Virus record (IMG/VR): IMGVR_UViG_3300005336_000003
Coordinates: 237 to 64,236 of that record
Source of the DNA: a virus
Taxonomy: Duplodnaviria; Caudoviricetes
Length of the DNA: 64,000 nt
Reading direction: 5' to 3' (one strand)
The notes under the pieces are model-generated. The model did no database searches and was not told where the DNA came from. It worked only from the letters and a program-made list of their open reading frames with translations. Positions 40,386 through 63,351 of the stretch are shown here, one piece after another; the stretch's first letter is position 1; the number at the start of each line of letters is the position of its first letter. Made by a program: the position numbers and the translations under genes.

Positions 40386-40440
40386 TGAGTGTCGCCCAGC
40401 ATTTTGCCACTAGCTGGCCCATCAATGGGTGCTATATAAT
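40386..40440 (+). promoter_or_regulatory. Boxed promoter 1
   Basis: TGAGTGTCGCCCAGCA, 9 nt, TAGCTG, 18 nt, TATAAT. Confidence 0.65.
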
Positions 40441-40521
40441 TATGTCAGTTGTTGCAGCGGAGCTGCTGCATCAACGACCCCGAGCCGGATCATCGGCACG
40501 GAAACAAGGAGACCGAGTACC

Positions 40522-41064
40522 ATGGCACGCAATCCCGAGTCCACCACCACCACCACCTCCGCACCTGAGCACGATCCGGTGGTGAATGCCGACAAGCCCA
40601 TCAACGAGAATCCGGTTGCCGAGGGCGGCGCCGAGAACAACGCCGAGCAGAAGCAGGACATCCTCGTCGAGGAGAAGGCGAAACCGGAAACCGTCGGCAA
40701 GGGTTTCACCTTCCCGCCCTCCAACGACTACAACAAGATGCTCGACGGCCTGCCCAACAAGAGCGCACGGATCCGGCGGATGCACGCCGATGGGTACAAG
40801 ACCACCCAGATCGCAAAGCACCTGAACATCCTGTATCAGCACGCGCGGAACGTGCTCACACAGGTGGTCAAGCGCCCTACCGAAGCGGCGATGCCGCAGG
40901 GTGAGCCGAACAACGTGGTTCAGATCACCAACGGCAAGCTGGCCGAGATCGCCGAATCCCAGGGGCTTTCCCCTGAGGAGCTGGCGGATGCGGTCCGTCA
41001 GGTCACCGGCATGGAGCTGAACATCGTGGTCGACGAGCCGGCGGAGCAGAAGGCCGCAGCCTAA
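40522..41064 (+). CDS. HTH DNA-binding protein, paralog of 39642-39851
   Basis: LPNKSARIRRM...G....QIAKHLNILYQHARNVL; AAGGAG RBS; strong codon bias. Confidence 0.8.
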   Translation: MARNPESTTTTTSAPEHDPVVNADKPINENPVAEGGAENNAEQKQDILVEEKAKPETVGKGFTFPPSNDYNKMLDGLPNKSARIRRMHADGYKTTQIAKHLNILYQHARNVLTQVVKRPTEAAMPQGEPNNVVQITNGKLAEIAESQGLSPEELADAVRQVTGMELNIVVDEPAEQKAAA

Positions 41065-41079
41065 CGGCGGTACGAGCGG

Positions 41080-41280
41080 GGGAGGGCGAAAGCCCTCCCT
41101 CCTTCCCTAAGGGCTAGCTCGGTCTAGCCCTTTGAGAAGGAGGTGGTACAGACAGATGAGGCTCCCTAGCGGGAGCCAGAACTAGCGCTAAGGCGCTTGG
41201 ACGAGCGAAGGGGCGGTCCTTCGCGGCTCGGATCACAGACCTGAAGGTCGGGGTTGTACTCGGCCGTATGGGACCGACGT
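41080..41280 (+). ncRNA. Tandem hairpin array (terminator plus candidate structured RNA)
   Basis: Consecutive stems GGGAGGGC/GCCCTCCC, AAGGGCTAG/CTAGCCCTT, GGCTCCC/GGGAGCC, AGCGC/GCGCT, GCGAAGG/CCTTCGC and GACCT/AGGTC. Confidence 0.4.
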
Positions 41281-41303
41281 GTTGGGAGGGCGATCGAAAC
41301 CTT

Positions 41304-41752
41304 GGGCAAATTATGGTCATCTAGAGGACGTTATAGATAAGTCCTTTGGGTGATCTCTGTGTCAACTTGAGGCTAACTACTGGAACTCCAAAAGGCAACA
41401 TTAGTTAACTCGTTGAAATCATTAGGTTTTTTGTGGTGCAGTAGTTAGTTAGTTTTTTCTACTAGTATATAAATCTAGTAAATCAAGTATATCCTGTCAC
41501 TATACCATAACCTGTACGTCCCTCCGGACCAATTTGACCTGCCAATGACCTAACCTGAACAGCATTAGGCAATACCTGCAATTGCCTAAAAGTCTCCAGT
41601 GATCTACTTTTTACCTTAATATAACTAACTACATAACTACTACTTCCTTAATGATTTCAATGAGTTAGCTTAGTTATACCTAAGTAGTTATAGTAGTTGC
41701 CTTTTTTGAGGATCCTAGATAAGACCATAGGGTGATCTGGCATGATTTGCCC
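41304..41752. repeat. AT-rich region with nested inverted repeats and a direct repeat (origin-like)
   Basis: IR pairs 41390-41399/41696-41705, 41404-41424/41649-41669, 41441-41451/41622-41632; DR 41334-41356/41716-41738. Confidence 0.7.
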
Positions 41753-41797
41753 CCATTGTGCTACCGTGAGCCTCAGTTGAGCGGCCGAACAGCATTC

Positions 41798-41852
41798 TTA
41801 GGGGCGACCATCACTTAGACAGTTGATACCAGCTGGATCACCAGAGTATAAT
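41798..41852 (+). promoter_or_regulatory. Boxed promoter 2
   Basis: TTAGGGGCGACCATCA, 9 nt, TTGATA, 18 nt, TATAAT. Confidence 0.8.
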
Positions 41853-41885
41853 AGGGATCCGCAGCCAATAAAGGGAGCACCCATA

Positions 41886-42353
41886 ATGGTGACACGGACG
41901 CCTGAGACACCAACAACAGCCATACCTAGGATGCCTGAGACACCAACGTCCGAGACACCAACGCTTCTGGATGGTAAGGGCTTCTACTTCTACGTGGCGA
42001 CGAGGGCGAGCATGAGAGGTTGCCAGTATAACATGTCCACTATGTTGGCGGCCTTGTGTGAGGCACTACATAGGATCCCGGAAGAGTACAGACCCAGACT
42101 GTACCGTAAGCGGAAGGGAGGTGACTACTATGACCTCCTGTGCATCCGTCAGGACTATGGCAGTACCAAGGAGGAGCTAGGCGAGAACGAGCTCCGAGCA
42201 ATGCGGAAGCTCCTCGAGAGTGCTGTACGACGTGTCCACCCTAAGGCGGCCTACCAGTTTGGGTTCGACAACCTAAGTAGCCAGGTAAGACCCTCCTTAG
42301 CGTACCTGCTAACAAGGACTGATCCCACTACGGAGGTGACGTGGATTACCTAG
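41886..42353 (+). CDS. Hypothetical early protein
   Basis: GGGAG RBS downstream of the promoter; N-terminal PETPT repeats. Confidence 0.6.
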   Translation: MVTRTPETPTTAIPRMPETPTSETPTLLDGKGFYFYVATRASMRGCQYNMSTMLAALCEALHRIPEEYRPRLYRKRKGGDYYDLLCIRQDYGSTKEELGENELRAMRKLLESAVRRVHPKAAYQFGFDNLSSQVRPSLAYLLTRTDPTTEVTWIT

Positions 42354-42422
42354 GTTAAGCCTCGTCCGCGCAAGCGACAAAGTCGCTAGTTCTAGCCCCC
42401 GCTAGTGCGCGGTTAGGTAAAA

Positions 42423-42477
42423 TAGTGGTAGCCCATCATTTGGACGCTTGCGGGCCTCGAGTGTAATACTGTATAAT
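42423..42477 (+). promoter_or_regulatory. Boxed promoter 3
   Basis: TAGTGGTAGCCCATCA, 9 nt, TTGCGG, 18 nt, TATAAT. Confidence 0.75.
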
Positions 42478-42561
42478 AGAAAGAAAATACCGACTCACGC
42501 AGACGAAACAGTTCAACTAGCACGTGCCTACACCAAACAGCAGATAACAGGAGAGTCAACT

Positions 42562-42789
42562 ATGGCCACACCTTACAATCCTGACGTCCACAGCAGCGTC
42601 GTCAGCAACTTCCGGCAGATGTGGAGTCAGTACGTTCCGGACAGGCAGCTCGTGCTCTCGGACGAGAAGATCTGGGCCATCTTCGATACCTGGGGAACAT
42701 GGCAAGCTGCCGACACCGAGTTTCCCGAGGTCGAGAACCGCTACGATGCAGCTGTCCTGGCAGAAATGGTGGACAGCAACATAGGGTGA
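42562..42789 (+). CDS. Hypothetical early protein
   Basis: AGGAG RBS; ATG at 42562. Confidence 0.65.
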   Translation: MATPYNPDVHSSVVSNFRQMWSQYVPDRQLVLSDEKIWAIFDTWGTWQAADTEFPEVENRYDAAVLAEMVDSNIG

Positions 42790-42821
42790 GATCGAGGGCA
42801 TATCCAGTAAGGAGTAGTAAC

Positions 42822-43082
42822 ATGAGCACCGAAAACGGAGATAAGGTCGTAGTCTGGGAACCCGGAAAGCCAGTCACGGTAAAGGGCATTCGGGGCCCCA
42901 CCGTAGACAAGGAGTATGCCAGGATTGATGGGCAGGGACCTTATCACCTAGCCTTCGTCATTAAGGACACCCTCCGCAATACCCAACTGATAGACCTATT
43001 CAACGAGCAGTACAAGAGCTTGGAGAGGGCAAGGTCGACCCTCCTGGGTATGGCCATGATCGCTTTCCGTGAGGAGGGCTGA
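42822..43082 (+). CDS. Hypothetical early protein
   Basis: TAAGGAG RBS. Confidence 0.65.
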   Translation: MSTENGDKVVVWEPGKPVTVKGIRGPTVDKEYARIDGQGPYHLAFVIKDTLRNTQLIDLFNEQYKSLERARSTLLGMAMIAFREEG

Positions 43083-43084
43083 CA

Positions 43085-43546
43085 GTGGAGACGGTATTCA
43101 TCCCGTACTTGCACCGGGAAGGTGGAGTCCATGCCTCTCTGAGGATTCCTGACCCGACGAAGCAGATTCACACCCACATTGATCTCCTTGGCGTCCAGAG
43201 GCACTATTACGTGCCCGACCTCATTGCAATGACCCTGGCTGAGCCGATGAGATACGAGCTCGTCAGGTATCAGGTGGATGCCAAACAGGCAGGCCATATC
43301 GTTGCCTACCACGGTATCGAGCTAAGCCATCTGACAGCCATCTCCTCATTGAGACTGGATGTTCCAGGCATCATAGTCTCATTCCCTGACGGTACTGAGA
43401 TCATCGTCGACGGGAATCACCGATATGTCAAGAGGTTCAGCCTCGGCAAGACAGCTATGGCGTTCTGGAGGATCCCCGAGGAACAGGCCAAGCAGTCGAT
43501 GCTGAATCTCCCACAGGTAACGCTTCTGGGAAGGAGGAGACCATGA
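43085..43546 (+). CDS. ParB/Srx-fold-like protein
   Basis: P.II.......IIVDGNHRY motif; GAGGAGGG RBS with GTG start. Confidence 0.6.
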   Translation: METVFIPYLHREGGVHASLRIPDPTKQIHTHIDLLGVQRHYYVPDLIAMTLAEPMRYELVRYQVDAKQAGHIVAYHGIELSHLTAISSLRLDVPGIIVSFPDGTEIIVDGNHRYVKRFSLGKTAMAFWRIPEEQAKQSMLNLPQVTLLGRRRP

Positions 43547-43824
43547 TATACAACCTCATCAAGAAAGACGGATGCTATCACCTCGTGGGCACCTCAGCCA
43601 AAGGTGAGAAGGTCGACGAGCTTCTGATCGTCCGATACAATGAGGGCGATGTCGATACGATCAGCAAGGACGGAGAGAATATGTATCACGCCCTCTACGA
43701 TCTGTACCAGACATCCGATGCTCTGAAGGATGGAGACGTGTTCACCCTTGATGGCGTGGCCATCTACAAGTGTGAGGGCGTCCATGTGATCGAACTAACC
43801 CAAACCAAGGAGGCTACCCAATGA
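43543..43824 (+). CDS. Hypothetical protein
   Basis: AGGAGG RBS; ATGA overlap. Confidence 0.6.
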   Translation: MIYNLIKKDGCYHLVGTSAKGEKVDELLIVRYNEGDVDTISKDGENMYHALYDLYQTSDALKDGDVFTLDGVAIYKCEGVHVIELTQTKEATQ

Positions 43825-44057
43825 GTACCATACTTGACATCCAACACGAGCCGAAGCAGGACGAGAAACCGACAGTCAGTGAGACCCGTACCCGCTACTT
43901 TATCGAGTTGTTCCCTGGTCCTCTAAATGACCAGAGCAGCGACCTGCTAGACCTGAGAACCTTATTGGTCTCCTTGGTGAACCTGAGCACAGGCAGAAAC
44001 TCAGCCAGGAGCATCGATGTTGAGGAGGTTCACTACCACCCCCAAAGGCGAGGTTAA
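43821..44057 (+). CDS. Hypothetical protein
   Basis: AAGGAGG RBS; ATGA overlap. Confidence 0.55.
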   Translation: MSTILDIQHEPKQDEKPTVSETRTRYFIELFPGPLNDQSSDLLDLRTLLVSLVNLSTGRNSARSIDVEEVHYHPQRRG

Positions 44058-44092
44058 CAAGGGTTAACAAGCCATAACAAGGAGTTGAATAG

Positions 44093-44302
44093 GTGAAACA
44101 CGAAATAACCCTCGAGCTGGTAACGGTTACAAAAGGAGCAGTGCGGTATGCCGAGCTGGATAGCAATGGCAAGATTGCACAAATGACCGAGCCCAGTACT
44201 GTCATTGGTACTGTTTACCTCAGGAAGCCTGCCCTAGCGAGAGCTACGAATCCTGGAGGGGCCTATCCCCAGAAGCTCAAGCTCACTGTCGAGACCTTCT
44301 GA
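44093..44302 (+). CDS. Small hypothetical protein
   Basis: TKGAVRYAE...IGT.YLRK.AL pattern; AAGGAG RBS. Confidence 0.6.
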   Translation: MKHEITLELVTVTKGAVRYAELDSNGKIAQMTEPSTVIGTVYLRKPALARATNPGGAYPQKLKLTVETF

Positions 44303-44568
44303 TGGCAGGAAGGATCTCGGCAAGGGAGCTGCCTCATCTTGCTCCGCACCTGCAGAAGGCCATTGCTGATGCGCTGGCAAAGCAGGGAGCCCCAATCCCA
44401 CCAGCTATCGATCCCAACAGGCCTCCTCCGGCGAAGCAGCCCCATATCAAGGGGAGCATCTTCGTGATGGTCTGCATCAGCCTTGGGATCCTGATCATCA
44501 TGATGGCATTCGGACTAGGCCATAGTGGTGGGCATAGTCTCAGCCACAATGGATTAATCCGCTACTGA
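44302..44568 (+). CDS. Hypothetical membrane protein
   Basis: One TM helix; TGATG coupling. Confidence 0.5.
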   Translation: MAGRISARELPHLAPHLQKAIADALAKQGAPIPPAIDPNRPPPAKQPHIKGSIFVMVCISLGILIIMMAFGLGHSGGHSLSHNGLIRY

Positions 44569-44584
44569 TCAACAGGAGTACAGC

Positions 44585-44794
44585 ATGCCTCAGTACCGTG
44601 TCGATTTTCCCGAAGGCCCTACTACATATAAGGACGAAGAAGACCTGGTTGAGCATTTTGGTACCATAGCCACATACAAACAGGTGCCTGGTGGAATCAT
44701 GATATACCACCCGATCAATCCGGGCAAGCCTATGATGGCTACCGAAGTGCCTAGCGTAGGCCAGGAAATTCACGAAGGGCCAACAACCGAATAG
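44585..44794 (+). CDS. Hypothetical protein
   Basis: AGGAG RBS. Confidence 0.55.
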   Translation: MPQYRVDFPEGPTTYKDEEDLVEHFGTIATYKQVPGGIMIYHPINPGKPMMATEVPSVGQEIHEGPTTE

Positions 44795-44808
44795 GACCAC
44801 CAGAAAAA

Positions 44809-44863
44809 TGATGGTCGACCGCAATTTGGACACTTGATGTCCCTTTGGGCGATATTGTATAAT
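44809..44863 (+). promoter_or_regulatory. Boxed promoter 4
   Basis: TGATGGTCGACCGCAA, 9 nt, TTGATG, 18 nt, TATAAT. Confidence 0.85.
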
Positions 44864-44907
44864 TGAAAGAAATAACCCAAATACACCACGGAGCGGGACC
44901 AAAGTGA

Positions 44908-45186
44908 ATGAGCAGTACGACAGACAAGCACAGCAAGTCCCTGCAGTTCTTAGTTACAGTAGAGGGTGTACCTGACGACATGACGCGATCTGAGGTGAAG
45001 AGATTCCTTGAAGGAGCAGCGACAGGAGCTCTCCTGCCATTTGTTCGCAACATCCGTGTCGTGAGGTACAATCTCCCGATTCAGATCAGGCGTGCCCGCG
45101 ATTTGGAGCGCGCAGCAAGGGATGTAATAGCTAAGGCGTTAGATCCTGCAAAAGCCCGTGAAGCCTACAAGCAAGGTGGGAAGTGA
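44908..45186 (+). CDS. Hypothetical protein
   Basis: First ORF after the promoter. Confidence 0.55.
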   Translation: MSSTTDKHSKSLQFLVTVEGVPDDMTRSEVKRFLEGAATGALLPFVRNIRVVRYNLPIQIRRARDLERAARDVIAKALDPAKAREAYKQGGK

Positions 45187-45569
45187 TGAATACCAGGGCT
45201 CTGAAGAAGATCGCGTCGGGGCAGGATCCCAACTTCCACTACGTGAACGACCTTGCAACTCACTTTGGGCTGGACACTCACAGGGACTTCGAAGGCCTAG
45301 TGAGTAGGGATGTAGTCATCAAGGCCTGTATGAATGCAGACGAGGATGACTATGTCTGGGATCTGGTATGTGCTGAAGGCACGCCGGAGCTTGTGGCGGC
45401 AGTTCGTGATATCACCCTGAACATCATGCACGAGCAGATGGAGCAAGTGGATACAGTCCCTCCTTGGGCCGAGGTATTCCAGATTGCTTTCACCGTGCAT
45501 GCAATGCTTACGTGTAATGCCTGGTTAAAGGTCGAGACATTCGATCCACCATCAACGGAAGAGCCGTAG
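45183..45569 (+). CDS. Hypothetical protein
   Basis: Overlap-coupled ORF. Confidence 0.55.
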   Translation: MMNTRALKKIASGQDPNFHYVNDLATHFGLDTHRDFEGLVSRDVVIKACMNADEDDYVWDLVCAEGTPELVAAVRDITLNIMHEQMEQVDTVPPWAEVFQIAFTVHAMLTCNAWLKVETFDPPSTEEP

Positions 45570-45571
45570 AC

Positions 45572-45916
45572 ATGAAGACCATAGCAGTAGAGATCAGGGA
45601 TCGGCATACTTTCATCCCGGCGCTCGTCATAGTACTGGGGCCTACTATAGGGCCAACTTTCAGAACAGACCCTGGCGAGGAATACCTCCTAAGGAGGGCT
45701 GGCTGGCATAACTTCACCAATCCAGGAATCATCCTCACCAGGCTAGATGCAGGCAAGGGTGTTATAGATCCATTCTCAAGCGGCAGGACAATAGATGCGG
45801 CGTACAGCTACTGCAGCGAGCATTGGGCAGATCTCGAGAACGGCGACGTCATTGACATTGAGTTCATCCTGGGGGAGAGCAGTGTCAAGAAGGTCTCCGA
45901 GAGGGAAGAATCCTAA
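45572..45916 (+). CDS. Conserved phage hypothetical protein
   Basis: EIRDR.TFIPAL..YLLRRAG..DP...RT...A..Y..EHW..L..GDVID.EFILGE pattern. Confidence 0.65.
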   Translation: MKTIAVEIRDRHTFIPALVIVLGPTIGPTFRTDPGEEYLLRRAGWHNFTNPGIILTRLDAGKGVIDPFSSGRTIDAAYSYCSEHWADLENGDVIDIEFILGESSVKKVSEREES

Positions 45917-46161
45917 TGCCCTTCTTCGGATTCCGCTGGGCGAGACTGCATCCCAAATCTAGTCCTGATGGGCCAAGATGGCAGCTGAGTGAGGCTGATG
46001 CCTTCGACATGCTCTGTGCTCAGGCTCTGATGCAGGAGAAATTCCCCCAAGAGGTAATCACCAGGGGAATAGCTACCGGATGGTACAACCGCATCCGGAT
46101 ACTAGGAGAGACGCACGGTTGGGACGTTACAATCACCATCAAGGACAAGAAGGGGTCATAG
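45916..46161 (+). CDS. Hypothetical protein
   Basis: TAATG coupling. Confidence 0.5.
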   Translation: MPFFGFRWARLHPKSSPDGPRWQLSEADAFDMLCAQALMQEKFPQEVITRGIATGWYNRIRILGETHGWDVTITIKDKKGS

Positions 46162-46163
46162 AC

Positions 46164-46526
46164 ATGAGCTATACCGCACGGAGAAACGTTGTTGCTCTGC
46201 CTATCAAGAGGGACAACACTGCCGATATGGGCAAAGCCCAGAAGAGGAGCGGCAGCGCGGCAGTCGATCGGGTGTTCTTCCTGAAGGAGGATATCAGCCT
46301 GGGCACTGAACTGCAGTTCTGGGGAAGGTCCGATGCGGGGGTGATCTACAAGGTCACCCGAATCCGTTCTTGGTATTCCGGGAAGAAGTTCGGCAACTGG
46401 GTGCTGAAGAACGTCAACACCGTCAGGCATACCACGGACGAGATCGAGATGGTGAGCTCTGATGGTGGAACGAAGCAGGGCACCTTCTCCTACATCTCGT
46501 ACTCTGGGATCTGGTGGTTGGCATGA
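46164..46526 (+). CDS. Hypothetical protein
   Basis: AAGGGG RBS; ATG at 46164. Confidence 0.55.
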   Translation: MSYTARRNVVALPIKRDNTADMGKAQKRSGSAAVDRVFFLKEDISLGTELQFWGRSDAGVIYKVTRIRSWYSGKKFGNWVLKNVNTVRHTTDEIEMVSSDGGTKQGTFSYISYSGIWWLA

Positions 46527-46945
46527 GTGCCCGAATCAGTATCGGTGGCATAACCCTCACGATTCCTGAGGGAGCCACCATCGGACTTGAGCTGTCCAAC
46601 GGCAGCGAGGGCCCCACGGTAAATCTCTCTGGCAGACCTCCGAAGCAGAAGGCACTGACGGGGCCTGTACGAGTTCCCCTCCTTGCTCTGGAGGCTCCTG
46701 CAATGACTATCAAGGAGAACACTCCATCCAGTGAGGTGCGTACGAGGATCCTCAAGGAACTCGGCGAGATCTCCGAGCCCATAACAACCGTGGCGCTCGT
46801 ACGGAAGATCCTGGGTGGAGGATCACCTGCCAAGCATCGTGCCGGACTTGCACGGCTCTTGCATCAGATGCAGGAGGAGGGTGAGATCCGCAGAGCCCGG
46901 AGGTCATCGACACAGAAACACCACAGGTGGAGCCTCAAGACCTAG
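46523..46945 (+). CDS. Hypothetical protein with C-terminal winged-helix-like domain
   Basis: IL..L......TT..L.......L.RLL..M..EG.I pattern. Confidence 0.5.
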   Translation: MSARISIGGITLTIPEGATIGLELSNGSEGPTVNLSGRPPKQKALTGPVRVPLLALEAPAMTIKENTPSSEVRTRILKELGEISEPITTVALVRKILGGGSPAKHRAGLARLLHQMQEEGEIRRARRSSTQKHHRWSLKT

Positions 46946-46980
46946 AGCCTACAAACCAGAAACGGGGAGGGTACAATAAC

Positions 46981-47475
46981 ATGCCAAGTATCTGGCAACC
47001 TTGGGCTCAGGAGATAGGGCTCAGACACCAGGGGGTTCTCATCGCTGGAGTAGGCCGAGGCTGCGATATAGCCATCAGGCACGATCCTAGCAAGGTATCC
47101 CAGAGACTGCTGAGAGGTGCGGTACTCGTACCCCACTGTGGGAGGTTTGCCAACCCCAAAACCTATATCTGGCAAGAGCGTGATGCCGGGAAATGGTGGG
47201 CGGGGCTCGTACCCTTCATGAATTCCTGGGATCACTACCCGAATCACTATGTGGTCCACTTCGTCCATGCAGCAGAGGTGATCGGGTACTGTGGGCCTGA
47301 TGAGTTCCCAGTTTTCTCCTCAAGGTGGAAGGAGTTCTACGAGAGGGCATGCAAGACTCTCCACGTGAACCCTGAGATGGCTGATCAGCTAAATGCCCGA
47401 CTCGACGCCGACGAGGAGGAGTTCTACAAGAACCAGGACGTAGTACGAGGCTTAGACAAACTTACACAGGAGTAG
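46981..47475 (+). CDS. Conserved phage hypothetical protein (His-rich, possibly metal-binding)
   Basis: LRHQGVL...RGCD, DHYP.HY..H..HAAEVIGY and LH.NPE motifs. Confidence 0.65.
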   Translation: MPSIWQPWAQEIGLRHQGVLIAGVGRGCDIAIRHDPSKVSQRLLRGAVLVPHCGRFANPKTYIWQERDAGKWWAGLVPFMNSWDHYPNHYVVHFVHAAEVIGYCGPDEFPVFSSRWKEFYERACKTLHVNPEMADQLNARLDADEEEFYKNQDVVRGLDKLTQE

Positions 47476-47481
47476 CACAAA

Positions 47482-49318: not shown

Positions 49319-49328
49319 GAGGGCTACA

Positions 49329-50512: not shown

Positions 50513-50567
50513 TTATGGTCGCATAACATTTGGACTCTTGATATGCCTAATAGACATATGATATAAT
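50513..50567 (+). promoter_or_regulatory. Boxed promoter 5
   Basis: TTATGGTCGCATAACA, 9 nt, TTGATA, 18 nt, TATAAT. Confidence 0.8.
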
Positions 50568-53915: not shown

Positions 53916-54147
53916 CCAGGCAGAGGAAGAGGAAGAGGACATCGAAGTCCTTGCGCAGAGGCACTCCGATGCCACTAGGCTCTCCATGTGGCTGATTACC
54001 GGCCCGAGCGGGGTACAAAAGTACACGATCTTCAACCCAGTTACTCGGGAGGCGCAGACTTTGAAGGCTGCAGGCTTCACCTACGGCAAGAGGATCGACC
54101 CTAATCTCAAAAAAGAGAATGATGGTCGCCCTCAAGAAACCACTTGA
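53899..54147 (+). CDS. Hypothetical protein
   Basis: ATG at 53899 overlaps the primase end; the 3' end overlaps a promoter box. Confidence 0.4.
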   Translation: MTNRPDQAEEEEEDIEVLAQRHSDATRLSMWLITGPSGVQKYTIFNPVTREAQTLKAAGFTYGKRIDPNLKKENDGRPQETT

Positions 54148-54173
54148 TTACCCCTATGGGATTACGCTATAAT
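54120..54173 (+). promoter_or_regulatory. Boxed promoter 6
   Basis: TGATGGTCGCCCTCAA, 8 nt, TTGATT, 18 nt, TATAAT. Confidence 0.85.
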
Positions 54174-54706: not shown

Positions 54707-54731
54707 TTGCCGCTTCGGCTAATCCTCGACT

Positions 54732-54768: not shown

Positions 54769-54799
54769 CCCAACCAGACCTTCGAACGGCAGATCACCT

Positions 54800-55345: not shown

Positions 55346-55349
55346 CGTC

Positions 55350-55949: not shown

Positions 55950-55956
55950 ATTTTTC

Positions 55957-56010
55957 TTGCGGTCGCCCTCAATTTTGACCCTTGAGGTCAATTAAGGATT
56001 GTTGTATAAT
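55957..56010 (+). promoter_or_regulatory. Boxed promoter 7
   Basis: TTGCGGTCGCCCTCAA, 9 nt, TTGAGG, 17 nt, TATAAT. Confidence 0.85.
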
Positions 56011-56060
56011 AGCATAGATTAATACCAGCGCCGTAGCAAGAGCAGGAGGCGTGTACTCAC

Positions 56061-56306
56061 ATGAGCAAGAGCAAGAGCGCTGAGTCAAGCAGCTCTACGT
56101 CCAATGATTATCTCCGATGCAGGTACTGTGACTTCAAGGTCGGCAAGTACCGAAGGCTTGCTAGCGGCCGAACCGTAAGCGGGTTCGGCCAGCTAGAGAA
56201 CCACATCGAGGACTTTCACCTCGACGAAGCAATGCGCCTTCAGGAACAGCTGGAGGAGCATGATGCATCTATCGATGAGGAGCTCAAGCGGGCGAAGGAG
56301 AGATAG
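56061..56306 (+). CDS. C2H2-like zinc-finger protein
   Basis: CRYC...L..H....H; AGGAGG RBS. Confidence 0.6.
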   Translation: MSKSKSAESSSSTSNDYLRCRYCDFKVGKYRRLASGRTVSGFGQLENHIEDFHLDEAMRLQEQLEEHDASIDEELKRAKER

Positions 56307-56308
56307 GC

Positions 56309-56671
56309 ATGAGTGTGAGTGAGCATCCTGGTAAGATAGAAGAGAGACCCCTTCTCGACGGTGATTACCTCCTATTCCTATGGGAGAACTTGCCGAGATA
56401 CGAGTGGGATAAGGCACTGCAATACTGGCCTAAGCTGGGCCACAAGATCATCGTCAAGATCCAGATGCCCATTGTGGGAAATACGGCACTGCTGTACAAC
56501 GAGGACAGCAGCTTCATGCTGGAGCTCTCCATGCGCCAGGGGAGATATCTGATGAGGGATCGACTCAAGGCCTACTTCTGGGCTACCTATACTGTGGATG
56601 CTGCCTCCAAGGAGCCTCAAGGAAAGTACGGCCTGATCATCGGGGAGATGGCGGAGGACCAGCCCTGGTAG
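56309..56671 (+). CDS. Hypothetical protein
   Basis: AAGGAG RBS. Confidence 0.6.
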   Translation: MSVSEHPGKIEERPLLDGDYLLFLWENLPRYEWDKALQYWPKLGHKIIVKIQMPIVGNTALLYNEDSSFMLELSMRQGRYLMRDRLKAYFWATYTVDAASKEPQGKYGLIIGEMAEDQPW

Positions 56672-56886
56672 AAGATCCTGATTGGCCCGAGTGCACCAGA
56701 AGAACGAGTGATAGATGCGAAGGGGATGTAAATCCTGTACGATGGTACCTAGGCTATCACTGGTGCTTAGCTTGTGCTGACGGGCCAAAGACGTACGTAT
56801 CCGTACAGATGCACAAGTCAAACGCAGTGCTTGTAACTAGCCGTGAGGAATTGAAGTATGTCGGAGTCAAGACCCCCCGAGAGTAG
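56665..56886 (+). CDS. CTG-initiated C4 zinc-finger protein (TraR/DksA-like), absent from the ORF track
   Basis: GGAGGA-6nt-CTG; translation MVEDPDWPECTRRTSDRCEGDVNPVRWYLGYHWCLACADGPKTYVSVQMHKSNAVLVTSREELKYVGVKTPRE. Confidence 0.7.
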   Translation: MVEDPDWPECTRRTSDRCEGDVNPVRWYLGYHWCLACADGPKTYVSVQMHKSNAVLVTSREELKYVGVKTPRE

Positions 56887-57352
56887 CCCGCGCGAATATC
56901 TCACCTGGGGTTACATCTCATCCCTGTGCGAGATCATCTGCGTCAAGATGTCGAGGATCCCGTTCAAGCCTATAGGTATTATTGCAGTGTCTCGTGGAGG
57001 GCTTGTACCTGCTGCGATCATTGCCAACAAACTCGGGATCAGAGACGTCCATGTATTGGCAATCCAATCGTACGAGGATATCGTCAGCAAGATCATCCTC
57101 GACAAGGTACCTAAAGCCCAGCCACTGTATCCCCTGTTTGTCCCTGATATCCCCTACAAGGGTCACCTATTCTTGGTGGTGGACGACATCTGCGATTCCG
57201 GTGCTACGCAGGCATTCATCCGCGAGACTTGGCCCATAGCCATGAGGGCATGTTTGGTCGTAAAGACTCCCCCAAGACTTGCAGGTACTCCCCACATAGC
57301 GGGAGCTTACCGGCCGCAGGGACAGTGGATAGTCTTCCCGTGGGAGGAGTAA
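56858..57352 (+). CDS. Type I phosphoribosyltransferase (Gpt/Xpt-like)
   Basis: IIAVSRGGLVPA, PRPP-binding motif LVVDDICDSGAT, WIVFPWE. Confidence 0.92.
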   Translation: MSESRPPESSPREYLTWGYISSLCEIICVKMSRIPFKPIGIIAVSRGGLVPAAIIANKLGIRDVHVLAIQSYEDIVSKIILDKVPKAQPLYPLFVPDIPYKGHLFLVVDDICDSGATQAFIRETWPIAMRACLVVKTPPRLAGTPHIAGAYRPQGQWIVFPWEE

Positions 57353-57660
57353 AACCCTTCAAGCCTAGAAAGCCTGGAGGAGGCAGGAAACCTGCTACGG
57401 AGTGCTCGGAATGCAGAGTAGCTCTGAGCCGCCGAGGATCTAGGAACGGAGCGAGATGTCCCGCATGCCTAGCAAAGGCAGCCAAAGCCTACCGGAAGAA
57501 GAACAAGGAGAAGATCCGAGCCTACGGGAAAGCCCGAAGAACGGATCCGGATTACATAGCCTATCAACGTGCTTACCAGAAGGAATACGTGAAGCTCTAT
57601 GGTAGCAACCCCAAAGACAAGAACAAAGAGGCACGGAAGGAAGCCCGGGAAAGCCCGTAA
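57340..57660 (+). CDS. Basic Zn-finger protein (resembles HNH N-terminal regions)
   Basis: CSEC...CPAC followed by a YRKKNKEKI basic helix; start uncertain. Confidence 0.45.
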   Translation: MGGVKPFKPRKPGGGRKPATECSECRVALSRRGSRNGARCPACLAKAAKAYRKKNKEKIRAYGKARRTDPDYIAYQRAYQKEYVKLYGSNPKDKNKEARKEARESP

Positions 57661-58201
57661 AGGGTCCAAGGCCGACCTGAGAGCCCGAACCTACCAGTCT
57701 TGGAATAACATGCTGCAGAGGTGTTACAACCCCAAGCATGTTAGCTACCAGGAATATGGCGGCAGAGGGATCGAAGTCTGTGTCCGCTGGAGACCCAAGC
57801 TCGCTTCGAACGGCGTTGGGGATACGGAGATAGGCGAGACAGAGGTTCCCGAGGTCATACGTTTTGAGAGGGCGATAGCCTTTGCCTGCTTTGTGGCTGA
57901 CGTTGGAGTCAAACCCAGCTGGCGACACACCCTCGATCGCAGTGATGCAAACGGGCACTACGAGCCTACGAACTGTAAGTGGGCTACGCCTAAGGAGCAG
58001 GGAGTCAACAAGCGGAGTACCCATTTCGTCCTGCATCCGAAGACCGGCCAAAGAATTGCTGCCGCTACCTTAGCGGACGAGTTGAAGATCTCATACCAGC
58101 AGTTGCGTGCCCGAATGATGAAGGCTGGTACGTGGTATGCTCTGAGAGACAAAGCAATAGACGTAACCGTCATACTCAAGCCTGGTGGGGAACCTCTATG
58201 A
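57599..58201 (+). CDS. HNH homing-endonuclease-like protein
   Basis: Y.SW.NM.QRC.NP....Y..YGGRGI.VC.RW...F..DVG.KP...TLDR.D.NG.YEP.NC.WAT..EQ..N. Confidence 0.88.
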   Translation: MVATPKTRTKRHGRKPGKARKGSKADLRARTYQSWNNMLQRCYNPKHVSYQEYGGRGIEVCVRWRPKLASNGVGDTEIGETEVPEVIRFERAIAFACFVADVGVKPSWRHTLDRSDANGHYEPTNCKWATPKEQGVNKRSTHFVLHPKTGQRIAAATLADELKISYQQLRARMMKAGTWYALRDKAIDVTVILKPGGEPL

Positions 58202-59142
58202 CTGTACCATTCCGCCCAATGCTGGCATTCGACGCTCAGCTGCCCTACTACGAGAAGCTCCTGAACGAAGGCCCTCTCTGGGTAAGCTACAAGTTGGATG
58301 GCATTCGCTGCATCGTCCGTGAGGGCAAGTTGGTGTCCCGGACTCTAAAGCCCATACCCAATCAATTTGTGCAGCAGAAGTTCAGTCGGGAGTGGGCTGA
58401 AGGCTTCGACGGAGAGCTGATCGTGGGAGATCCTTCTGGAGAGGGAGTGTTTGCTCGAACCTCCTCTGGAGTGATGTCCCACGCAGGGACGCCCAATGTG
58501 GTCTTCCACGTGTTTGACGTTGCTGCCCAGCATAATGATCCCTACTTTAAGCGATTCCTATTCCTGCAGAACGTGATGGGATCCGTTGCTACTCTGGAGA
58601 AGGATCTGGGAGTGTGCTTCCAGGTCAATCTTGTTGAACAGGTTGTAGTGGGCAGCATTGCGGAGCTGGAGGCCTTCGAGGAGAAGGCTGTGGAACTGGG
58701 CTACGAGGGGGTGATAGTCCGTAAGCCAGGAGCTCCCTACAAGCAAGGACGTGCTACTCCTCGTGAAGGCTACATGGGGAAGCTCAAGCGGTTCGTAGAC
58801 CGTGAGGCTGAGATCATTGGGTTTGAGGAGATGATGCATAATGGCAACCCTGCAACAACCGACTCTCGAGGCTTCACTACTCGAAGCAGTCACAAGAGTG
58901 GTCAGAGAGCATCAGGGATGCTTGGAACAATTCTGGTTCGAGATACAGCTGGGCCCAGATGGGAGTTTGGAATTGGAAGCGGGTTTGACCATACGACAAG
59001 AAGGACAATCTGGGCCCGAAAAGAAGCCTACCTAGGGAAGATTGTCAAGTACAAGTACCTCCCTGTGGGAATGAAGGATGTCCCGAGGCACCCTGTATTC
59101 CTCGGCTTCCGAGATCCCATCGATATGGGATCCCCTGCATGA
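58198..59142 (+). CDS. ATP-dependent DNA ligase
   Basis: PMLA, KLDGIR, DGEL, FHVFD, GYEGVIVR, KLKRF and PRHPVF.GFRD motifs. Confidence 0.95.
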   Translation: MTVPFRPMLAFDAQLPYYEKLLNEGPLWVSYKLDGIRCIVREGKLVSRTLKPIPNQFVQQKFSREWAEGFDGELIVGDPSGEGVFARTSSGVMSHAGTPNVVFHVFDVAAQHNDPYFKRFLFLQNVMGSVATLEKDLGVCFQVNLVEQVVVGSIAELEAFEEKAVELGYEGVIVRKPGAPYKQGRATPREGYMGKLKRFVDREAEIIGFEEMMHNGNPATTDSRGFTTRSSHKSGQRASGMLGTILVRDTAGPRWEFGIGSGFDHTTRRTIWARKEAYLGKIVKYKYLPVGMKDVPRHPVFLGFRDPIDMGSPA

Positions 59143-59303
59143 AGGACTCTACCCGACTATTCATCCTCTGGATGATCTGGATATTCCTATTGCTCGTCCA
59201 GTTTGACGTGGCGAGCATCAAGAACAGTGCCAGAGCCACTGAGAAGTATACCTGCCTACGGCTCAAGGAACTACCAAGCTATGGGGAGTTAGTCTGCAAA
59301 TGA
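59139..59303 (+). CDS. Small membrane protein (54 aa)
   Basis: ATGA overlaps at both ends; LFILWMIWIFLLLV TM segment. Confidence 0.5.
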   Translation: MKDSTRLFILWMIWIFLLLVQFDVASIKNSARATEKYTCLRLKELPSYGELVCK

Positions 59304-59617
59304 ACGACAACGAACCGCGTCGGCGGGGCAGATCCTACACAACCCCATTCAAGGCGAGGTTCCCTGCTGCTTGGGCCATGTTAGGCAACGGTGTCAATAT
59401 GGCAAACATCCCTGTCAAAGATAGGTACAACTACAAGGATGGGGTCTATCAGCCTAGCTATGCCAACTTCCCTCCTCAGGTAGTCGAGCGACTCGCAGAC
59501 GTTTGCCTCCACCTGATGGACTGCTACGAAGAGGGAGGCTCGCATCACGATCGCAAGGATGCACTCGAGCACTACATCCGTGCGCAGGCGGCAGCTATCT
59601 CCTGGCTCAGTAGGTAG
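59300..59617 (+). CDS. Hypothetical protein
   Basis: ATGA coupling. Confidence 0.55.
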   Translation: MNDNEPRRRGRSYTTPFKARFPAAWAMLGNGVNMANIPVKDRYNYKDGVYQPSYANFPPQVVERLADVCLHLMDCYEEGGSHHDRKDALEHYIRAQAAAISWLSR

Positions 59618-59624
59618 GATAGGA

Positions 59625-59828
59625 ATGAGACTAAAGGATAAGATCTTGGCAGTACTTTACGGTAGCACTAGCTGGAGCTCGGAGTCATACCCAGAGCTCG
59701 CTAGGCGTATTGCCGAGGAGGTATCGACGCACCCTGCTGTAGGGTTTAAAGGCACCTTTCGTAAGGAGAGGTTGAACAGGACTCAAGCAGATCCCAATCA
59801 CAGGCAATCGGAAGGACACAAAACATGA
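59625..59828 (+). CDS. Hypothetical protein
   Basis: AGGA RBS; fills the gap. Confidence 0.45.
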   Translation: MRLKDKILAVLYGSTSWSSESYPELARRIAEEVSTHPAVGFKGTFRKERLNRTQADPNHRQSEGHKT

Positions 59829-60532
59829 AGGCGTTCCTCATTGACTCTGCTGCACGGAAGATTACCGAGGTGGAGTACGAGTTGGGTGATGTCTCCAGGC
59901 TCATTGGCGGCGATGGGATCTGCTTGGGCTTCAGGTTCCGTAACGGAGACCTTCTCTACGTCGACGACAAGGGACTGCTGAAGCCTCAGGAGCACTTCTT
60001 CTGGATCTCAGATCGTACCGATCAGCCCTTAGCGGGTAATGGCCTTGTGGCAGGGCCTGACAGGCTCGATGAAACCCTCGACGTTCAGATGAGCTACGAT
60101 ACCTTGAAAGCCAAGGTGACGTTCATCGATCGAGAGGGAGTAGATATGTGGACCGAAGGCTTGCCTCTGAATATCCCCGGTACGACCCTCAACGGCCGAC
60201 TGATTACCACCCTCAAGGAGACTTTCCAGAGCATCCCTCGTCCTGATGGTTATGTCTCCCCTGTGATTCAGATGGTGCCTGTAGCAGATAAGCCCTGGCT
60301 TGACTACCTGGAGAAGCATAAGGTCGACATCACAGCCGCAATCCGGAAGTTCGCTCCCAGCATTGCCTCTAGCGGCCTGTGGGAGAAGGCTCTGGAGGAG
60401 AAGAATATTTCTGCTCTCATCCGCCTCATGCAGATCGCCCGGCAATCCATCTATGCAAAGCATGACTTCCCCGAACTCTGCGCCCTCCTCGATGGTACTG
60501 TCGGCAACATAACAATAAAGCCCCGGAAGTAA
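59825..60532 (+). CDS. DUF3846-like hypothetical protein
   Basis: A.LID.....TEVE, LYVDD.GLL and PLAGNGL..G.D motifs. Confidence 0.65.
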   Translation: MKAFLIDSAARKITEVEYELGDVSRLIGGDGICLGFRFRNGDLLYVDDKGLLKPQEHFFWISDRTDQPLAGNGLVAGPDRLDETLDVQMSYDTLKAKVTFIDREGVDMWTEGLPLNIPGTTLNGRLITTLKETFQSIPRPDGYVSPVIQMVPVADKPWLDYLEKHKVDITAAIRKFAPSIASSGLWEKALEEKNISALIRLMQIARQSIYAKHDFPELCALLDGTVGNITIKPRK

Positions 60533-60536
60533 CTAG

Positions 60537-60560
60537 CCTGAACCTGAACCTGAACCTGAA
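60537..60560 (+). repeat. (CCTGAA)x4 tandem repeat
   Basis: Seen directly upstream of the RBS of 60570. Confidence 0.8.
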
Positions 60561-60569
60561 GGAACTCTT

Positions 60570-61193
60570 ATGACCGACCAGCCCTTCTCGATTGATATCC
60601 CCGCCATACCCGAAAAGTGGCAGCGGATCCTCTCTGAGGTGAGAATAGTGTTTCCTGAGGCCGTCATAGGGGGAGGCTGTCTACGAGACCTCATCCTGGA
60701 GAAGGAGCACAAGGACATTGACGTGTTCGTACCTTGGAGGACCTCTGAGGACCTGTCTCAGACCGCGGCCCTACTCTACTCCAGGATGGGCGATCTGCCC
60801 TACGACAGTCGGGCCCTCTCCGAGCTGAAGGTCTACGCGATGAACTTCAGTGATGTGGTGCAGGTCTTCGGGCTGAGGATAGAACGCGAGGACGTCCAGA
60901 TCATTGCTCTTGACGCTCCCGTGAGCTCAGAGTACATTGCCTCCAGATGCGACTTCGGCATCTGCCGGCTTGCTTGGGATGGGGAGTGCTTGAACATCCG
61001 GGAGGACTTCCTGACGGACGTCAAGAACAAGACATTCACCCTCCTACGGTGCTCTGACGTGGAGAGCCACTGGCGTCGATGGCTACGTCTGAAGGAAAGA
61101 TTCCCCGGCTGGACCCTGGTTGCTCCTGAGATTAGGGAGTGGCTAGAGGCTTCAGGTATGGATCCCAACGAGGCTGACTTCGACTTTACCTGA
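60570..61193 (+). CDS. Nucleotidyltransferase (CCA/poly(A) polymerase head-like)
   Basis: GGGCLRD......KDIDVF, VQII, DFGIC and R..RL.ERFP motifs. Confidence 0.8.
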   Translation: MTDQPFSIDIPAIPEKWQRILSEVRIVFPEAVIGGGCLRDLILEKEHKDIDVFVPWRTSEDLSQTAALLYSRMGDLPYDSRALSELKVYAMNFSDVVQVFGLRIEREDVQIIALDAPVSSEYIASRCDFGICRLAWDGECLNIREDFLTDVKNKTFTLLRCSDVESHWRRWLRLKERFPGWTLVAPEIREWLEASGMDPNEADFDFT

Positions 61194-61211
61194 CAATACG
61201 GAACCAGTCAC

Positions 61212-62615
61212 ATGCAAGAGCTACCCCTGACAAAGACGCCTCGTCCCTATCAGCAGGAGTTTGTAGACTGGTTCATCAAGGAAGCCCAGAGCAGGGCAAT
61301 CAATGCAGATGAGATGGGTCTGGGTAAGACGTGCGAGGCTTACCTAGCCTGGAGGGCTCTAGGCTACCCGATGCCTTGCCTGATCCTAGCAGGCGTCAAT
61401 GCCCAGGTGACTTGGGCAGCCCAGGCTAAGGACTGGGGATGCCCTGCCCCTAATCGTATCAGAGGTACCCCTGCTGAGAGAGCTCACCAGTGGAGTAAGT
61501 ACGGTAAAGGGCTCACTACTACAACCCGAGAGGCCCTGAAGCGGGACATCAAGAGCGGAGTAGTTAAGCCTGAACAATTCAAGTTTGTCATAGTCGACGA
61601 GGCTCACAAGGACTCGAACCGTAAGGTCGGCAACTGGAGGCTGATCAAGAGCCTCTTCGGTAACAGTACTAAGGGCATGCTATTATCGGGCAGTGCCTCA
61701 CGCAGAGGTAACCAGAATCTGTGGGGCCTCCTGCACGTAGTGCGGCCTTGGCAGTATAAGTCCTTCTACCAGTTCATTGATAAGTACTGCGAGATTGACA
61801 AGGAAGGCCCGTTTGGGTGGGAGATCTTAGGACCGAAGAATGAGGAAGGCCTACAGCGAGAGCTGGCTAAGATTATGATCCGCAGAACCAAGAAGCTGGT
61901 TAGGCCCGACATGCCTCCTAAGACTCGGGATCTGGACTCTAACGTGCTCGTCATGACTCCCGGACAGCAGGAGCTCTACCGGAATATATCTGAAGATGCC
62001 GTAGCAGAACTGGCTGCCGGTGGATACATTACAGCACCCAATCTCCTGGCTAAGATCCTACGTCTACGCCAGGTTCTCGTCACCCCCAAGCTGCTTGATC
62101 CCAATGCGGAGGATGGCGCAGGAATAGACCGAGTAGTGGAGATGCTTGATGAGGCGGACGATAAGCACATGTGTATTTTCAGCCCCTTCGCTGCCGCCCT
62201 GCCTCACGTACAGAAGCGCCTTGTTGCTGAAGGGCATGATCCAGGAAGTATCATTCAGCTCTCTGGCGGACTGTCCGTCGAGGAACTTGTGCGACGTATT
62301 GATGTCTTCAGAGCGCGCCGAGGGATATGCATATGTAGTATCCGTTACGCTGAGTCATTTGATCTCATCCCAGCCACCTGGGGAGTATTCCTTGGTTATG
62401 AATGGGACGCCTGGGACAACTTGCAGGCTGAGGATCGACTTCACCGTGGCGAGATAGTTGATCCTGTCACGCTGTACTACATCTCCCACTCCGGAGGAAT
62501 CGATAGGGAGCTAATGCTGGGGGCTTTGGATACCAAGGTCAACAACGTTATGCAGGTGCTCGGGAACATGGAAAGGGTACGTCAAATGCTCAAGGCCAAC
62601 ATAGGCAGACCGTGA
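61212..62615 (+). CDS. SNF2-family (SF2) helicase
   Basis: RPYQ, ADEMGLGKT, VDEAH, LSGS, IRRTK and QAEDRLHR motifs. Confidence 0.92.
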   Translation: MQELPLTKTPRPYQQEFVDWFIKEAQSRAINADEMGLGKTCEAYLAWRALGYPMPCLILAGVNAQVTWAAQAKDWGCPAPNRIRGTPAERAHQWSKYGKGLTTTTREALKRDIKSGVVKPEQFKFVIVDEAHKDSNRKVGNWRLIKSLFGNSTKGMLLSGSASRRGNQNLWGLLHVVRPWQYKSFYQFIDKYCEIDKEGPFGWEILGPKNEEGLQRELAKIMIRRTKKLVRPDMPPKTRDLDSNVLVMTPGQQELYRNISEDAVAELAAGGYITAPNLLAKILRLRQVLVTPKLLDPNAEDGAGIDRVVEMLDEADDKHMCIFSPFAAALPHVQKRLVAEGHDPGSIIQLSGGLSVEELVRRIDVFRARRGICICSIRYAESFDLIPATWGVFLGYEWDAWDNLQAEDRLHRGEIVDPVTLYYISHSGGIDRELMLGALDTKVNNVMQVLGNMERVRQMLKANIGRP

Positions 62616-62815
62616 TGGGCTACGTTATAACAGTGCTAATAATAATCCTGACAGTCATGCTGGGCATTGAGCTTTTTGCCGAGTCAGGGGATTTCAAGTG
62701 CACAAAGGGGCACAATGAGACCATGTTGATGCCGATAGTCATCAACAACATTACCATCTACATGCCTGCCGACAACTTCGTATGCGACCAGTGGACAAGG
62801 AAGAGCAGCCAGTGA
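62612..62815 (+). CDS. Small membrane-anchored Cys-pair protein
   Basis: N-terminal TM helix; C..GH...CD.W. Confidence 0.55.
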   Translation: MMGYVITVLIIILTVMLGIELFAESGDFKCTKGHNETMLMPIVINNITIYMPADNFVCDQWTRKSSQ

Positions 62816-63258
62816 AGTTCGCCGAACTAGCTACTGTTAGTCACAACATCCAGGAGCGTACAGGTGAGTACCCCGAGAACATGTACATCACCGAGGAGTC
62901 TGCCGCTGAGCTGATCGGGGATCTCACCACCTCGGGACTATGGTCAGTACCTGCTGGAGAGCTGATGCAGGCAATTAGGGACCGGAAGTTCAAGCTGAGC
63001 GGTATCCGAATCCTCCTGCTTCTTCCCTGGCCAAGAGAGACCCTCCATACAAAGCCGGGCCCAAAGCCAAAGACAAAGGCAAAGGCAAAAGCTCAGACAG
63101 AAACACCGGCTGGGGACTCGGAGCAGGCTCGGGCTGCCATGGATGCTGCTAGAGAATTCCGACATAAGATTATGGGCGGCAATGCAGGACGTCTGAGCCC
63201 AGAAGATCTAGAACGTGTTATGTTTGGCCTTTGGGATCTGCCTCCTCGAAGGGGTTGA
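62812..63258 (+). CDS. Hypothetical protein
   Basis: GTGA overlap; Lys/Ala linker. Confidence 0.5.
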   Translation: MKFAELATVSHNIQERTGEYPENMYITEESAAELIGDLTTSGLWSVPAGELMQAIRDRKFKLSGIRILLLLPWPRETLHTKPGPKPKTKAKAKAQTETPAGDSEQARAAMDAAREFRHKIMGGNAGRLSPEDLERVMFGLWDLPPRRG

Positions 63259-63297
63259 GCTCACGCAGATTTTATCTGGACCCTGCATAAATTTTTC

Positions 63298-63351
63298 TTG
63301 CGGGCGACCATCAGATTCCTCTTGATTAGCCTCCTTAAAATGTTGTATAAT
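63298..63351 (+). promoter_or_regulatory. Boxed promoter 8 (would drive the exonuclease-Sak4-que-polymerase operon across the junction)
   Basis: TTGCGGGCGACCATCA, 8 nt, TTGATT, 18 nt, TATAAT. Confidence 0.85.

Follow-up and report, generated by a model that had tools for sequence, protein, structure and literature searches.

Eight rightward promoters in a 64,000-nucleotide stretch of phage DNA (hereafter, the window) possess a 16-base pair (bp) dyad-symmetric element, box A, that occupies a fixed position upstream of near-identical core promoter sequences. The window represents bases 237-64236 of the 64,236-bp IMG/VR virus record IMGVR_UViG_3300005336_000003. A preliminary description, made from the nucleotide sequence alone, had proposed a single class of promoters, eight in number and sharing a dyad-symmetric element upstream, and the analysis reported here upholds that proposal. 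We also describe a family of small helix-turn-helix (HTH) proteins encoded in the control region of the same phages, and regard it as evenly balanced whether box A is the operator at which a dimer of such a phage-encoded mini-HTH protein acts on early and middle promoters.

Results

Organization of the box A promoters

The consensus of box A is a 16-bp sequence, T-N3-GGKCGMCC-N3-A, flanked by A/T tracts, with A-runs before and T-runs after the box at several sites. All eight 16-mers quoted in the preliminary description were found at their coordinates. The distance from the start of the box to the first T of a perfect TATAAT is 49 nucleotides (nt) in five promoters and 48 nt in three, which corresponds to the 33 or 32 nt between box and TATAAT that had been claimed. 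The remaining spacing was also as described: the linker between box and -35 is 9 or 8 nt, the spacer measures 18 nt except in one promoter, where it is 17 nt, TATAAT is perfect in all eight, and the -35 is mostly TTGA-type (six of eight).

All eight promoters lie on the + strand. Promoter 1 (40386..40440) consists of box A TGAGTGTCGCCCAGCA (40386-40401), a 9-nt linker, the -35 hexamer TAGCTG (40411-40416), an 18-nt spacer and TATAAT (40435-40440), and is predicted to drive a long HTH gene. Promoter 2 (41798..41852) comprises TTAGGGGCGACCATCA (41798-41813), TTGATA (41823-41828) and TATAAT (41847-41852); promoter 3 (42423..42477), TAGTGGTAGCCCATCA (42423-42438), TTGCGG (42448-42453) and TATAAT (42472-42477); and promoter 4 (44809..44863), TGATGGTCGACCGCAA (44809-44824), TTGATG (44834-44839) and TATAAT (44858-44863). 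Promoter 5 (50513..50567), with TTATGGTCGCATAACA (50513-50528), TTGATA (50538-50543) and TATAAT (50562-50567), is located upstream of a conserved 108-amino acid gene and a gene for an 859-amino acid DUF3854 protein. In promoter 6 (54120..54173), TGATGGTCGCCCTCAA (54120-54135) is followed by an 8-nt linker, TTGATT (54144-54149) and TATAAT (54168-54173). Promoter 7 (55957..56010) is the one with the 17-nt spacer, between TTGAGG (55982-55987) and TATAAT (56005-56010), and its box is TTGCGGTCGCCCTCAA (55957-55972). Finally, promoter 8 (63298..63351) contains TTGCGGGCGACCATCA (63298-63313), an 8-nt linker, TTGATT (63322-63327) and TATAAT (63346-63351); it is predicted to drive an exonuclease gene, and probably also the replication and 7-deazaguanine genes that wrap around to 11.2 kb.

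At each of the eight promoters a + strand open reading frame (ORF) with a Shine-Dalgarno-like sequence starts 27-92 nt past the end of TATAAT. By sequence, all eight thus combine the -35, spacer, -10 and downstream ORF of a sigma-70-type promoter. An independent consensus scan matched six of the core promoters at no fewer than 10 of 12 positions; the two that it missed have a weak -35.

Statistical support for box A

TATAAT itself is present in the window in 10 copies where 8.4 are expected, so its number is not unusual; all 10 copies lie between 39332 and 63351, and every + strand TATAAT from 40435 to 63346 (8/8) has box A. The strict pattern TNNNGGKCGMCCNNNA has five matches against 0.31 expected, a count reached in none of 100 shuffles. 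A symmetric matrix derived from the eight sites gave scores of 12.6-20.2 bits to these sites, and no other position in the window exceeded 10.4. Because this test is circular, the matrix being trained on the sites that it scores, a second matrix was trained on 31 boxes of relatives only and used to score 127,970 window positions. The top eight positions included seven of the eight sites, the exception being the site at 55957, which ranked 126 in the + orientation. Additionally, at least six of the eight core positions are present at the right offset in all eight window promoters, as compared with 1.4% of random places. The strict pattern, both matrices and the core-position test together exclude a chance origin of box A.

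Conservation of box A in related phages

A search of IMG/VR with the DNA polymerase identified 15 loci, and a close-pattern search of the same database for relatives of the 859-amino acid protein returned no match. With the window phage designated G000, five related records (G001-G005) were inspected in full. The DNA polymerases of G001, G002, G004 and G003 are 60-70% identical in amino acid sequence to that of the window phage. G005, a fragment whose sequence starts just past the last promoter, is therefore uninformative on box A either way.

The promoters of G001, G002 and G004 are built from the same module: an A/T tract, nnnnGGnCGACCATCA, TTTKGACNC, TTGATT, 18 nt, and TATAAT. G003 possesses the same order of A/T tract, box and core promoter in a looser form. 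In G000-G004, 39 of 49 + strand core promoters have at least five of the eight core box positions at the expected offset, whereas random places do so in 9% of cases. Four orthologous promoters align well from the A-tract to the -10 and are unalignable on both sides; from sequence comparison, such a block reads as a classic phylogenetic footprint of constraint. Even the weak -35 of promoter 1 is conserved, being TAGCTG or TAGATT in three of four genomes. In one G004 variant the box starts 59 nt, rather than 49 nt, before TATAAT.

Beyond these genomes, a pattern of box core, CAAG and ATTATA occurs in 46 stretches on 38 IMG/VR contigs, among which are relatives identified by DNA polymerase. A tighter composite of box half, linker and CTTG has 13 matches in 2.9 million viral contigs, nine of which belong to G001, G002 and G004. 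The same composite yielded eight matches in 185,579 prokaryote genomes, none followed by a -10 or promoter, in a scan confined to the composite.

Two side observations concern the sequences adjoining these promoters. The first bases after TATAAT, AGAAAGAAAATACC, are nearly identical in several promoters (42478-42491 and 44864-44877 in the window; 3531 and 5901 in G001; 24618, 26145 and 27973 in G002; 14220 in G004), which suggests either that promoters were duplicated recently or that they have a leader element in common. Just upstream of the sixth box (54104-54119) is an inverted repeat, (A)TCTC-AAAAAA-GAGA; G000-G003 all keep it at the orthologous promoter, where G004 has an insertion.

Symmetry of box A

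The 16 half-sites of the window share the consensus T-K-R-Y-G-G-K-C on both arms, with T1, G5, G6, K7 and C8 in common, and the left and right halves contain 10.2 and 9.9 bits of information, respectively. The stronger arm, ACCATCA, is found on either side of the fixed centre. When an oriented matrix from relatives was applied, four of the window sites scored best reversed, in agreement with the earlier statement that the box occurs in either orientation. Box A therefore has the dyad symmetry of an operator for a dimeric protein, and a dimer fits because the stronger arm can lie on either side. In a sister lineage of phage contigs the corresponding box is ATATGGTCGCCCATAT, which has the same core and the same distance from its core promoter, TTGCTA-18-TATAAT (seven loci); here both arms have changed together around an unchanged centre.

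A second palindrome in the divergent control region

The leftward late promoter, TTGATT-18-TATAAT (39332..39361, - strand), reads into a 28-kb structural operon. It had been described as having the same core promoter without the box. Both points hold; the promoter is not bare, however, but has a different palindrome, TTAA-N6-TTAA, which we designate box B (ATTAACAAGATTTAAT, 39383..39398, - strand), whose 5' end lies 61 nt before TATAAT. A copy of box B (ATTAACAAACTTTACT, 39537..39552, + strand) precedes the divergent rightward promoter 0 (TATAAT, 39586..39591, + strand), which has a poor -35, ATCTTT, lacks box A, and is located upstream of a short HTH gene and two small membrane-type ORFs. This copy starts 49 nt before TATAAT, an offset equal to that of box A, and the late-promoter box B is thus about one helical turn farther out (61 versus 49 nt). 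Because box B sits at the box A offset on promoter 0, the same core promoter is paired with two different palindromes at one docking place.

The box B motif ATTAACAAnnTTTAAT has six matches in the window against 0.79 expected, a number that 0 of 100 shuffles reached, and all but one (at 44053) are within 39383-39552. In G001, G002 and G004 box B is situated 10-11 nt before the -35 and is also found upstream of extra HTH genes and of late promoters. A CtrA box, TTAA-N7-TTAAC, was considered as an identity for box B and rejected on its spacing, box B being TTAA-N6-TTAA in both the window and G001.

Other features of this region were also noted. A further stretch of box B matches is present at 39507-39525. 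At position 34993 of G004, the ortholog of the exonuclease promoter (63298-63351 in the window) has a box B-like element, ATTAAATTTTGTTAA, in place of box A, and promoters can thus switch class between relatives. A strong hairpin, GGGGATCCC-GAAA-GGGATCCCC (39859-39880), follows the short HTH gene, and a terminator-like hairpin with a run of nine T residues (40253..40280, + strand) closes the promoter 0 operon ahead of promoter 1. The two membrane-type ORFs (39912-40058 and about 40066-40205) lie between these hairpins.

Candidate HTH regulators

Two genes of the control region encode candidate regulators. HTH-S (69 amino acids; 39642..39851, + strand) is the first gene of the rightward operon that follows promoter 0. 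HTH-L (180 amino acids; 40522..41064, + strand) is the first gene after promoter 1, as it is in all four relatives (G001-G004), a position that supports a phage-encoded factor. The HTH segments of the two proteins are paralogous, with 68% identity over 38 amino acids, and share the motif LP(T/N)KSA(K/R)IR...G(F/Y)KTTQI(S/A)K.L.I.YQH(V/A)RNVL. HTH-S is modelled confidently as a three-helix HTH (predicted local distance difference test score, pLDDT, of 82). In the model of HTH-L, a disordered N-terminus precedes a three-helix HTH (residues 68-113, LPNKSARIR...YQHARNVL), which is the only confident part; the tail forms a strand-helix-helix that could be ribbon-helix-helix-like, and because its pLDDT is only 56-67 we make no claim for it.

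Related genomes (G001-G008) possess one to four copies of the HTH domain, all in the early control region. Searching IMG/VR with the HTH peptide identified 63 contigs, including 13 of the 38 contigs that had been found independently by the box-plus-promoter pattern. Public data contain the domain in 565 cluster representatives (E <= 0.001), a wide distribution that takes in bacterial proteins with two copies and an AbrB/MazE domain. The weak Foldseek neighbours of HTH-S (E 0.3-1.8) are HTHs of transposases, GerE/LuxR proteins, ParB and sigma region 4, and include DosR, TraR, RcsB and LiaR (all E > 0.3); of 61 family members, just 2 are matched by the Pfam GerE model (E <= 0.1). The open literature that we searched contained no match to the HTH peptide motifs.

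Other identities for the regulator were considered. A GcrA-like identity was rejected, GcrA not being among the families that members of the HTH family match. A WYL-domain protein encoded just upstream of the DNA polymerase gene (6915-7361) is an unlikely regulator because, among the relatives, it matches only G004, over 62 amino acids. We also observed that the long HTH proteins end in ...AA (KAAA, TKAA, SQAA or IKAA; the HTH-L C-terminus is at 41049-41064). These ends resemble C-terminal Ala-Ala degradation tags and could make the regulator short-lived.

The source genome and a cultured relative

A 40-bp terminal repeat on the record indicates a circular assembly. Scans of window ORFs against PHROGs (115 ORFs) and Pfam (58 ORFs) revealed a siphophage-like genome, and no tRNA genes were found in the window. 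A leftward structural and lysis block (11.3-39.3 kb) encodes terminase, portal, tail proteins and endolysin. The rightward block starts at 39.6 kb, continues through the window end and wraps to 11.2 kb; it contains many small ORFs of unknown function and encodes the DUF3854 protein, a resolvase-like protein, an AAA-type nucleotide-kinase-like protein, ligase, SNF2 helicase, exonuclease, a Sak4-like protein, QueC, QueD and QueE, GTP cyclohydrolase and DNA polymerase A. The cluster of QueC-, QueD- and QueE-like and GTP cyclohydrolase genes (2213-5673) is kept in all relatives and in the cultured phage StAshley, and the window phage DNA therefore probably carries a 7-deazaguanine modification. 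Such a modification would alter the major groove at the conserved G residues of box A and could affect which proteins read the box.

A DNA search for a nearly identical cultured phage gave no close match. By DNA polymerase, the nearest cultured phages are the Brevundimonas phages StAshley and MaInes (38.5% identity). The gene order in StAshley is terminase, a gene of unknown function, a divergent gap, a 69-amino acid HTH gene and two tiny ORFs, which lie at the same spot as the membrane-type ORFs of the window. The late side of the gap contains TTGTGGTCGACCATCT, 9 nt and TTGACA-17-TATAAT (ON529865.1 43,550-43,660, - strand), and box-like sites precede at least four more promoter-like sites on both strands (record positions 38622, 50944, 57819 and 62664). 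The available part of the paper describing StAshley does not contain the word 'promoter' (PMC10070969).

Discussion

A proposed role for box A

We propose that box A is a dyad-symmetric site for a protein dimer, extending from about -61 to -46 with its centre near -53.5, and that the eight near-consensus sigma-70-type promoters would serve the early and middle (replication) genes of the rightward block. Most likely the phage itself encodes the protein, which would belong to the paralogous mini-HTH family of the control region, represented by HTH-L and HTH-S. Bound just upstream of the T-rich linker and the -35, the dimer would make contact with RNA polymerase, probably by way of the alpha C-terminal domain. 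The symmetry of the box, the concerted change of both arms and the variants shifted by about one helical turn fit a protein dimer facing RNA polymerase, and the upstream position, the offset of 10-11 bp in two variants and the retention of a weak -35 at promoter 1 fit contact with the polymerase from one face of the helix. The bound protein would set the output of the whole promoter class, which it may either raise or, as late transcription takes over, turn off. The preliminary description had favoured a dimeric activator over a repressor; a dimer still fits, given that either arm can be the stronger one, and as regards the sign of regulation the sequence is compatible with an activator or a repressor. 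Box B, at the same position, would mark the other promoter class and be read by an HTH paralogue. By extension, these phages may run a temporal programme with neither sigma replacement nor a polymerase of their own, in which interchangeable 16-bp palindromes near -54 sort near-identical sigma-70 promoters and each palindrome is read by a different paralogue of an expanding HTH family, a scheme that is conceivable though rather doubtful.

Several observations weigh against an operator read by a phage HTH dimer. Near-consensus core promoters should fire unaided, which argues against a strict need for an activator, and the first genes expressed after infection cannot depend on a phage protein that has not yet been made. 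The more distant relatives G006 and G007 keep only the promoter-proximal half, ACCATC(A), in line with an element of one direction that a monomer, or else RNA polymerase directly, would read. Family-wide, the proximal half holds 10.0 bits of information and the distal half 6.4, and conservation continues unbroken from the box through TTTKGACNC into the -35. In StAshley the box is present on late-side as well as rightward promoters, so that class specificity is not universal; this, together with the half-box of G006 and G007, makes 'early regulon operator' a valid label for the window clade only. As for the candidate proteins, neither HTH-L nor HTH-S reaches the cut-off of any Pfam or NCBIfam family, and Foldseek returned no structure at E <= 0.001 with the HTH-S model. 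The co-occurrence of HTH domain and box may reflect common descent of one phage family as much as function. Furthermore, phages with different box arms have almost the same presumed recognition helix, RYQHVRNVL, which therefore cannot explain arm specificity; in the wider scheme of interchangeable palindromes, this helix might read the invariant GGnCGnCC core or contact RNA polymerase.

Alternative explanations

The requirement that early promoters work before any phage protein exists would be satisfied if box A were bound by a host protein, either a global regulator or a nucleoid protein, which the phage borrows to drive or time its promoters. The presence of box A on the rightward promoters, including promoter 1, from which the candidate regulator itself would be expressed, is in keeping with such a factor. 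We nevertheless consider it unlikely. The composite box-linker pattern is only chance-like in the prokaryote genomes scanned, the arms differ between sister phage lineages that share a core promoter, and, to our knowledge, the box fits no consensus for CRP, FNR, LexA, IHF, Fis, DnaA or the mar-box. The core box also persists in the Brevundimonas phage despite a DNA polymerase only 38.5% identical, for which a factor carried by the phage is the easier explanation. The unbroken conservation into the -35, the richer proximal half, the ACCATC remnant in G006 and G007, the flanking A/T tracts and the occurrence of box-like sites on both StAshley promoter classes would all be accounted for by an extended promoter, in which box, T-rich linker and -35 are read directly by the alpha C-terminal domains or sigma of RNA polymerase with no extra protein, and in which likeness among sites is kept by selection for strength and by promoter duplication. 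We judge this explanation improbable, to much the same degree as a host factor. The alpha subunit binds A/T-rich UP elements, whereas the GGKCGMCC core is G+C-rich; the strong arm lies on either side of the centre in the window, both arms change together in the sister lineage, and elsewhere the same core promoter has another palindrome in place of box A. In addition, the three promoters with an 8-nt linker lack TTTKGAC and still have box A.

That the palindrome acts as RNA or as a cruciform, for instance as a terminator or processing site of the upstream transcript, is very improbable. The idealised sequence AAAA-TGATGG-TCGA-CCATCA-TTTT would fold, and A-runs before and T-runs after the box at several sites would suit a terminator. 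The actual sites show no pairing covariation, since complementarity within boxes (4.15 of 8 pairs) is below that of shuffled left and right halves (4.59; 99.9% of permutations are at or above the observed value). Their predicted RNA folds are weak (-2 to -9.6 kcal/mol; z-scores, -1.1 to +0.8) and no better than those of shuffles; a terminator scan called no site on any box, and an Rfam search of the sites returned no match. The hairpin, terminator and cruciform readings were rejected on these grounds.

Comparison with known regulatory systems

As the preliminary description had it, box A corresponds to no operator that we recognise: its sequence strings match only unrelated primer-type sequences in the open literature searched. 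In function it is most like the Ogr/Delta-dependent late promoters of phage P2, LuxR-type boxes and class I CRP sites, and it resembles none of these by sequence. The P2 Ogr element lies near -55, from where Ogr contacts the alpha subunit, and P2 late promoters have poor -35 hexamers. In the available part of a report on P2 and P4, the late promoters have the consensus TGT-N12-ACA and depend on Ogr (PMC3931495). There, as in the window, several promoters share a partly dyad element upstream of the -35; the P2 element is read by a small phage activator. In contrast, the eight boxes do not fit TGT-N12-ACA, and the window promoters are near-consensus and serve early and middle genes. No zinc-finger Ogr/Delta homologue was found among 115 ORFs compared with PHROGs or 58 compared with Pfam.

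The lux-box and tra-box, too, are palindromes (16-20 bp) whose place relative to the -35 is fixed, either upstream of it or overlapping it. Their readers are GerE-type HTH dimers of the LuxR-TraR kind; the phage HTH proteins, however, lack a ligand or receiver domain. In class I CRP promoters the activator site is at -61.5, with the alpha C-terminal domain between activator and sigma. Box A is similar as a putative dimer site upstream of the core promoter, in having variants moved by roughly one turn of the helix, and in the A/T-rich stretch before the -35, which could seat the alpha C-terminal domain. It differs in its centre near -53.5, its unrelated sequence and the strength of its core promoters. 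The small p4 protein of phage phi29 binds inverted repeats upstream of several promoters, where it represses early transcription and, by way of the alpha C-terminal domain, activates the late promoter. The p4 protein does not belong to the HTH family of the window, and its sites and spacing differ from those of box A. UP elements of the rrnB P1 type occupy -40 to -60 upstream of strong promoters, as box A does, and A/T runs flank the box; its dyad-symmetric core, GGKCGMCC, is G+C-rich, and box A is therefore not an UP element in composition.

Implications

We know of no work on gene regulation in these siphophages with 7-deazaguanine genes. If the proposed reading is true, box A and the HTH family would provide a cis-acting element and a candidate family of trans-acting factors for a widespread group of uncultured phages. 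Although present in hundreds of protein clusters from phages and bacteria, the HTH domain lacks a dedicated Pfam family. The design recurs in StAshley, a cultured phage, and the box A idea is thus directly testable. One core promoter combined with swappable upstream palindromes would constitute a compact and portable set of regulatory parts and, if the reading is true, a simple model for how a phage times its genes with the host polymerase alone.

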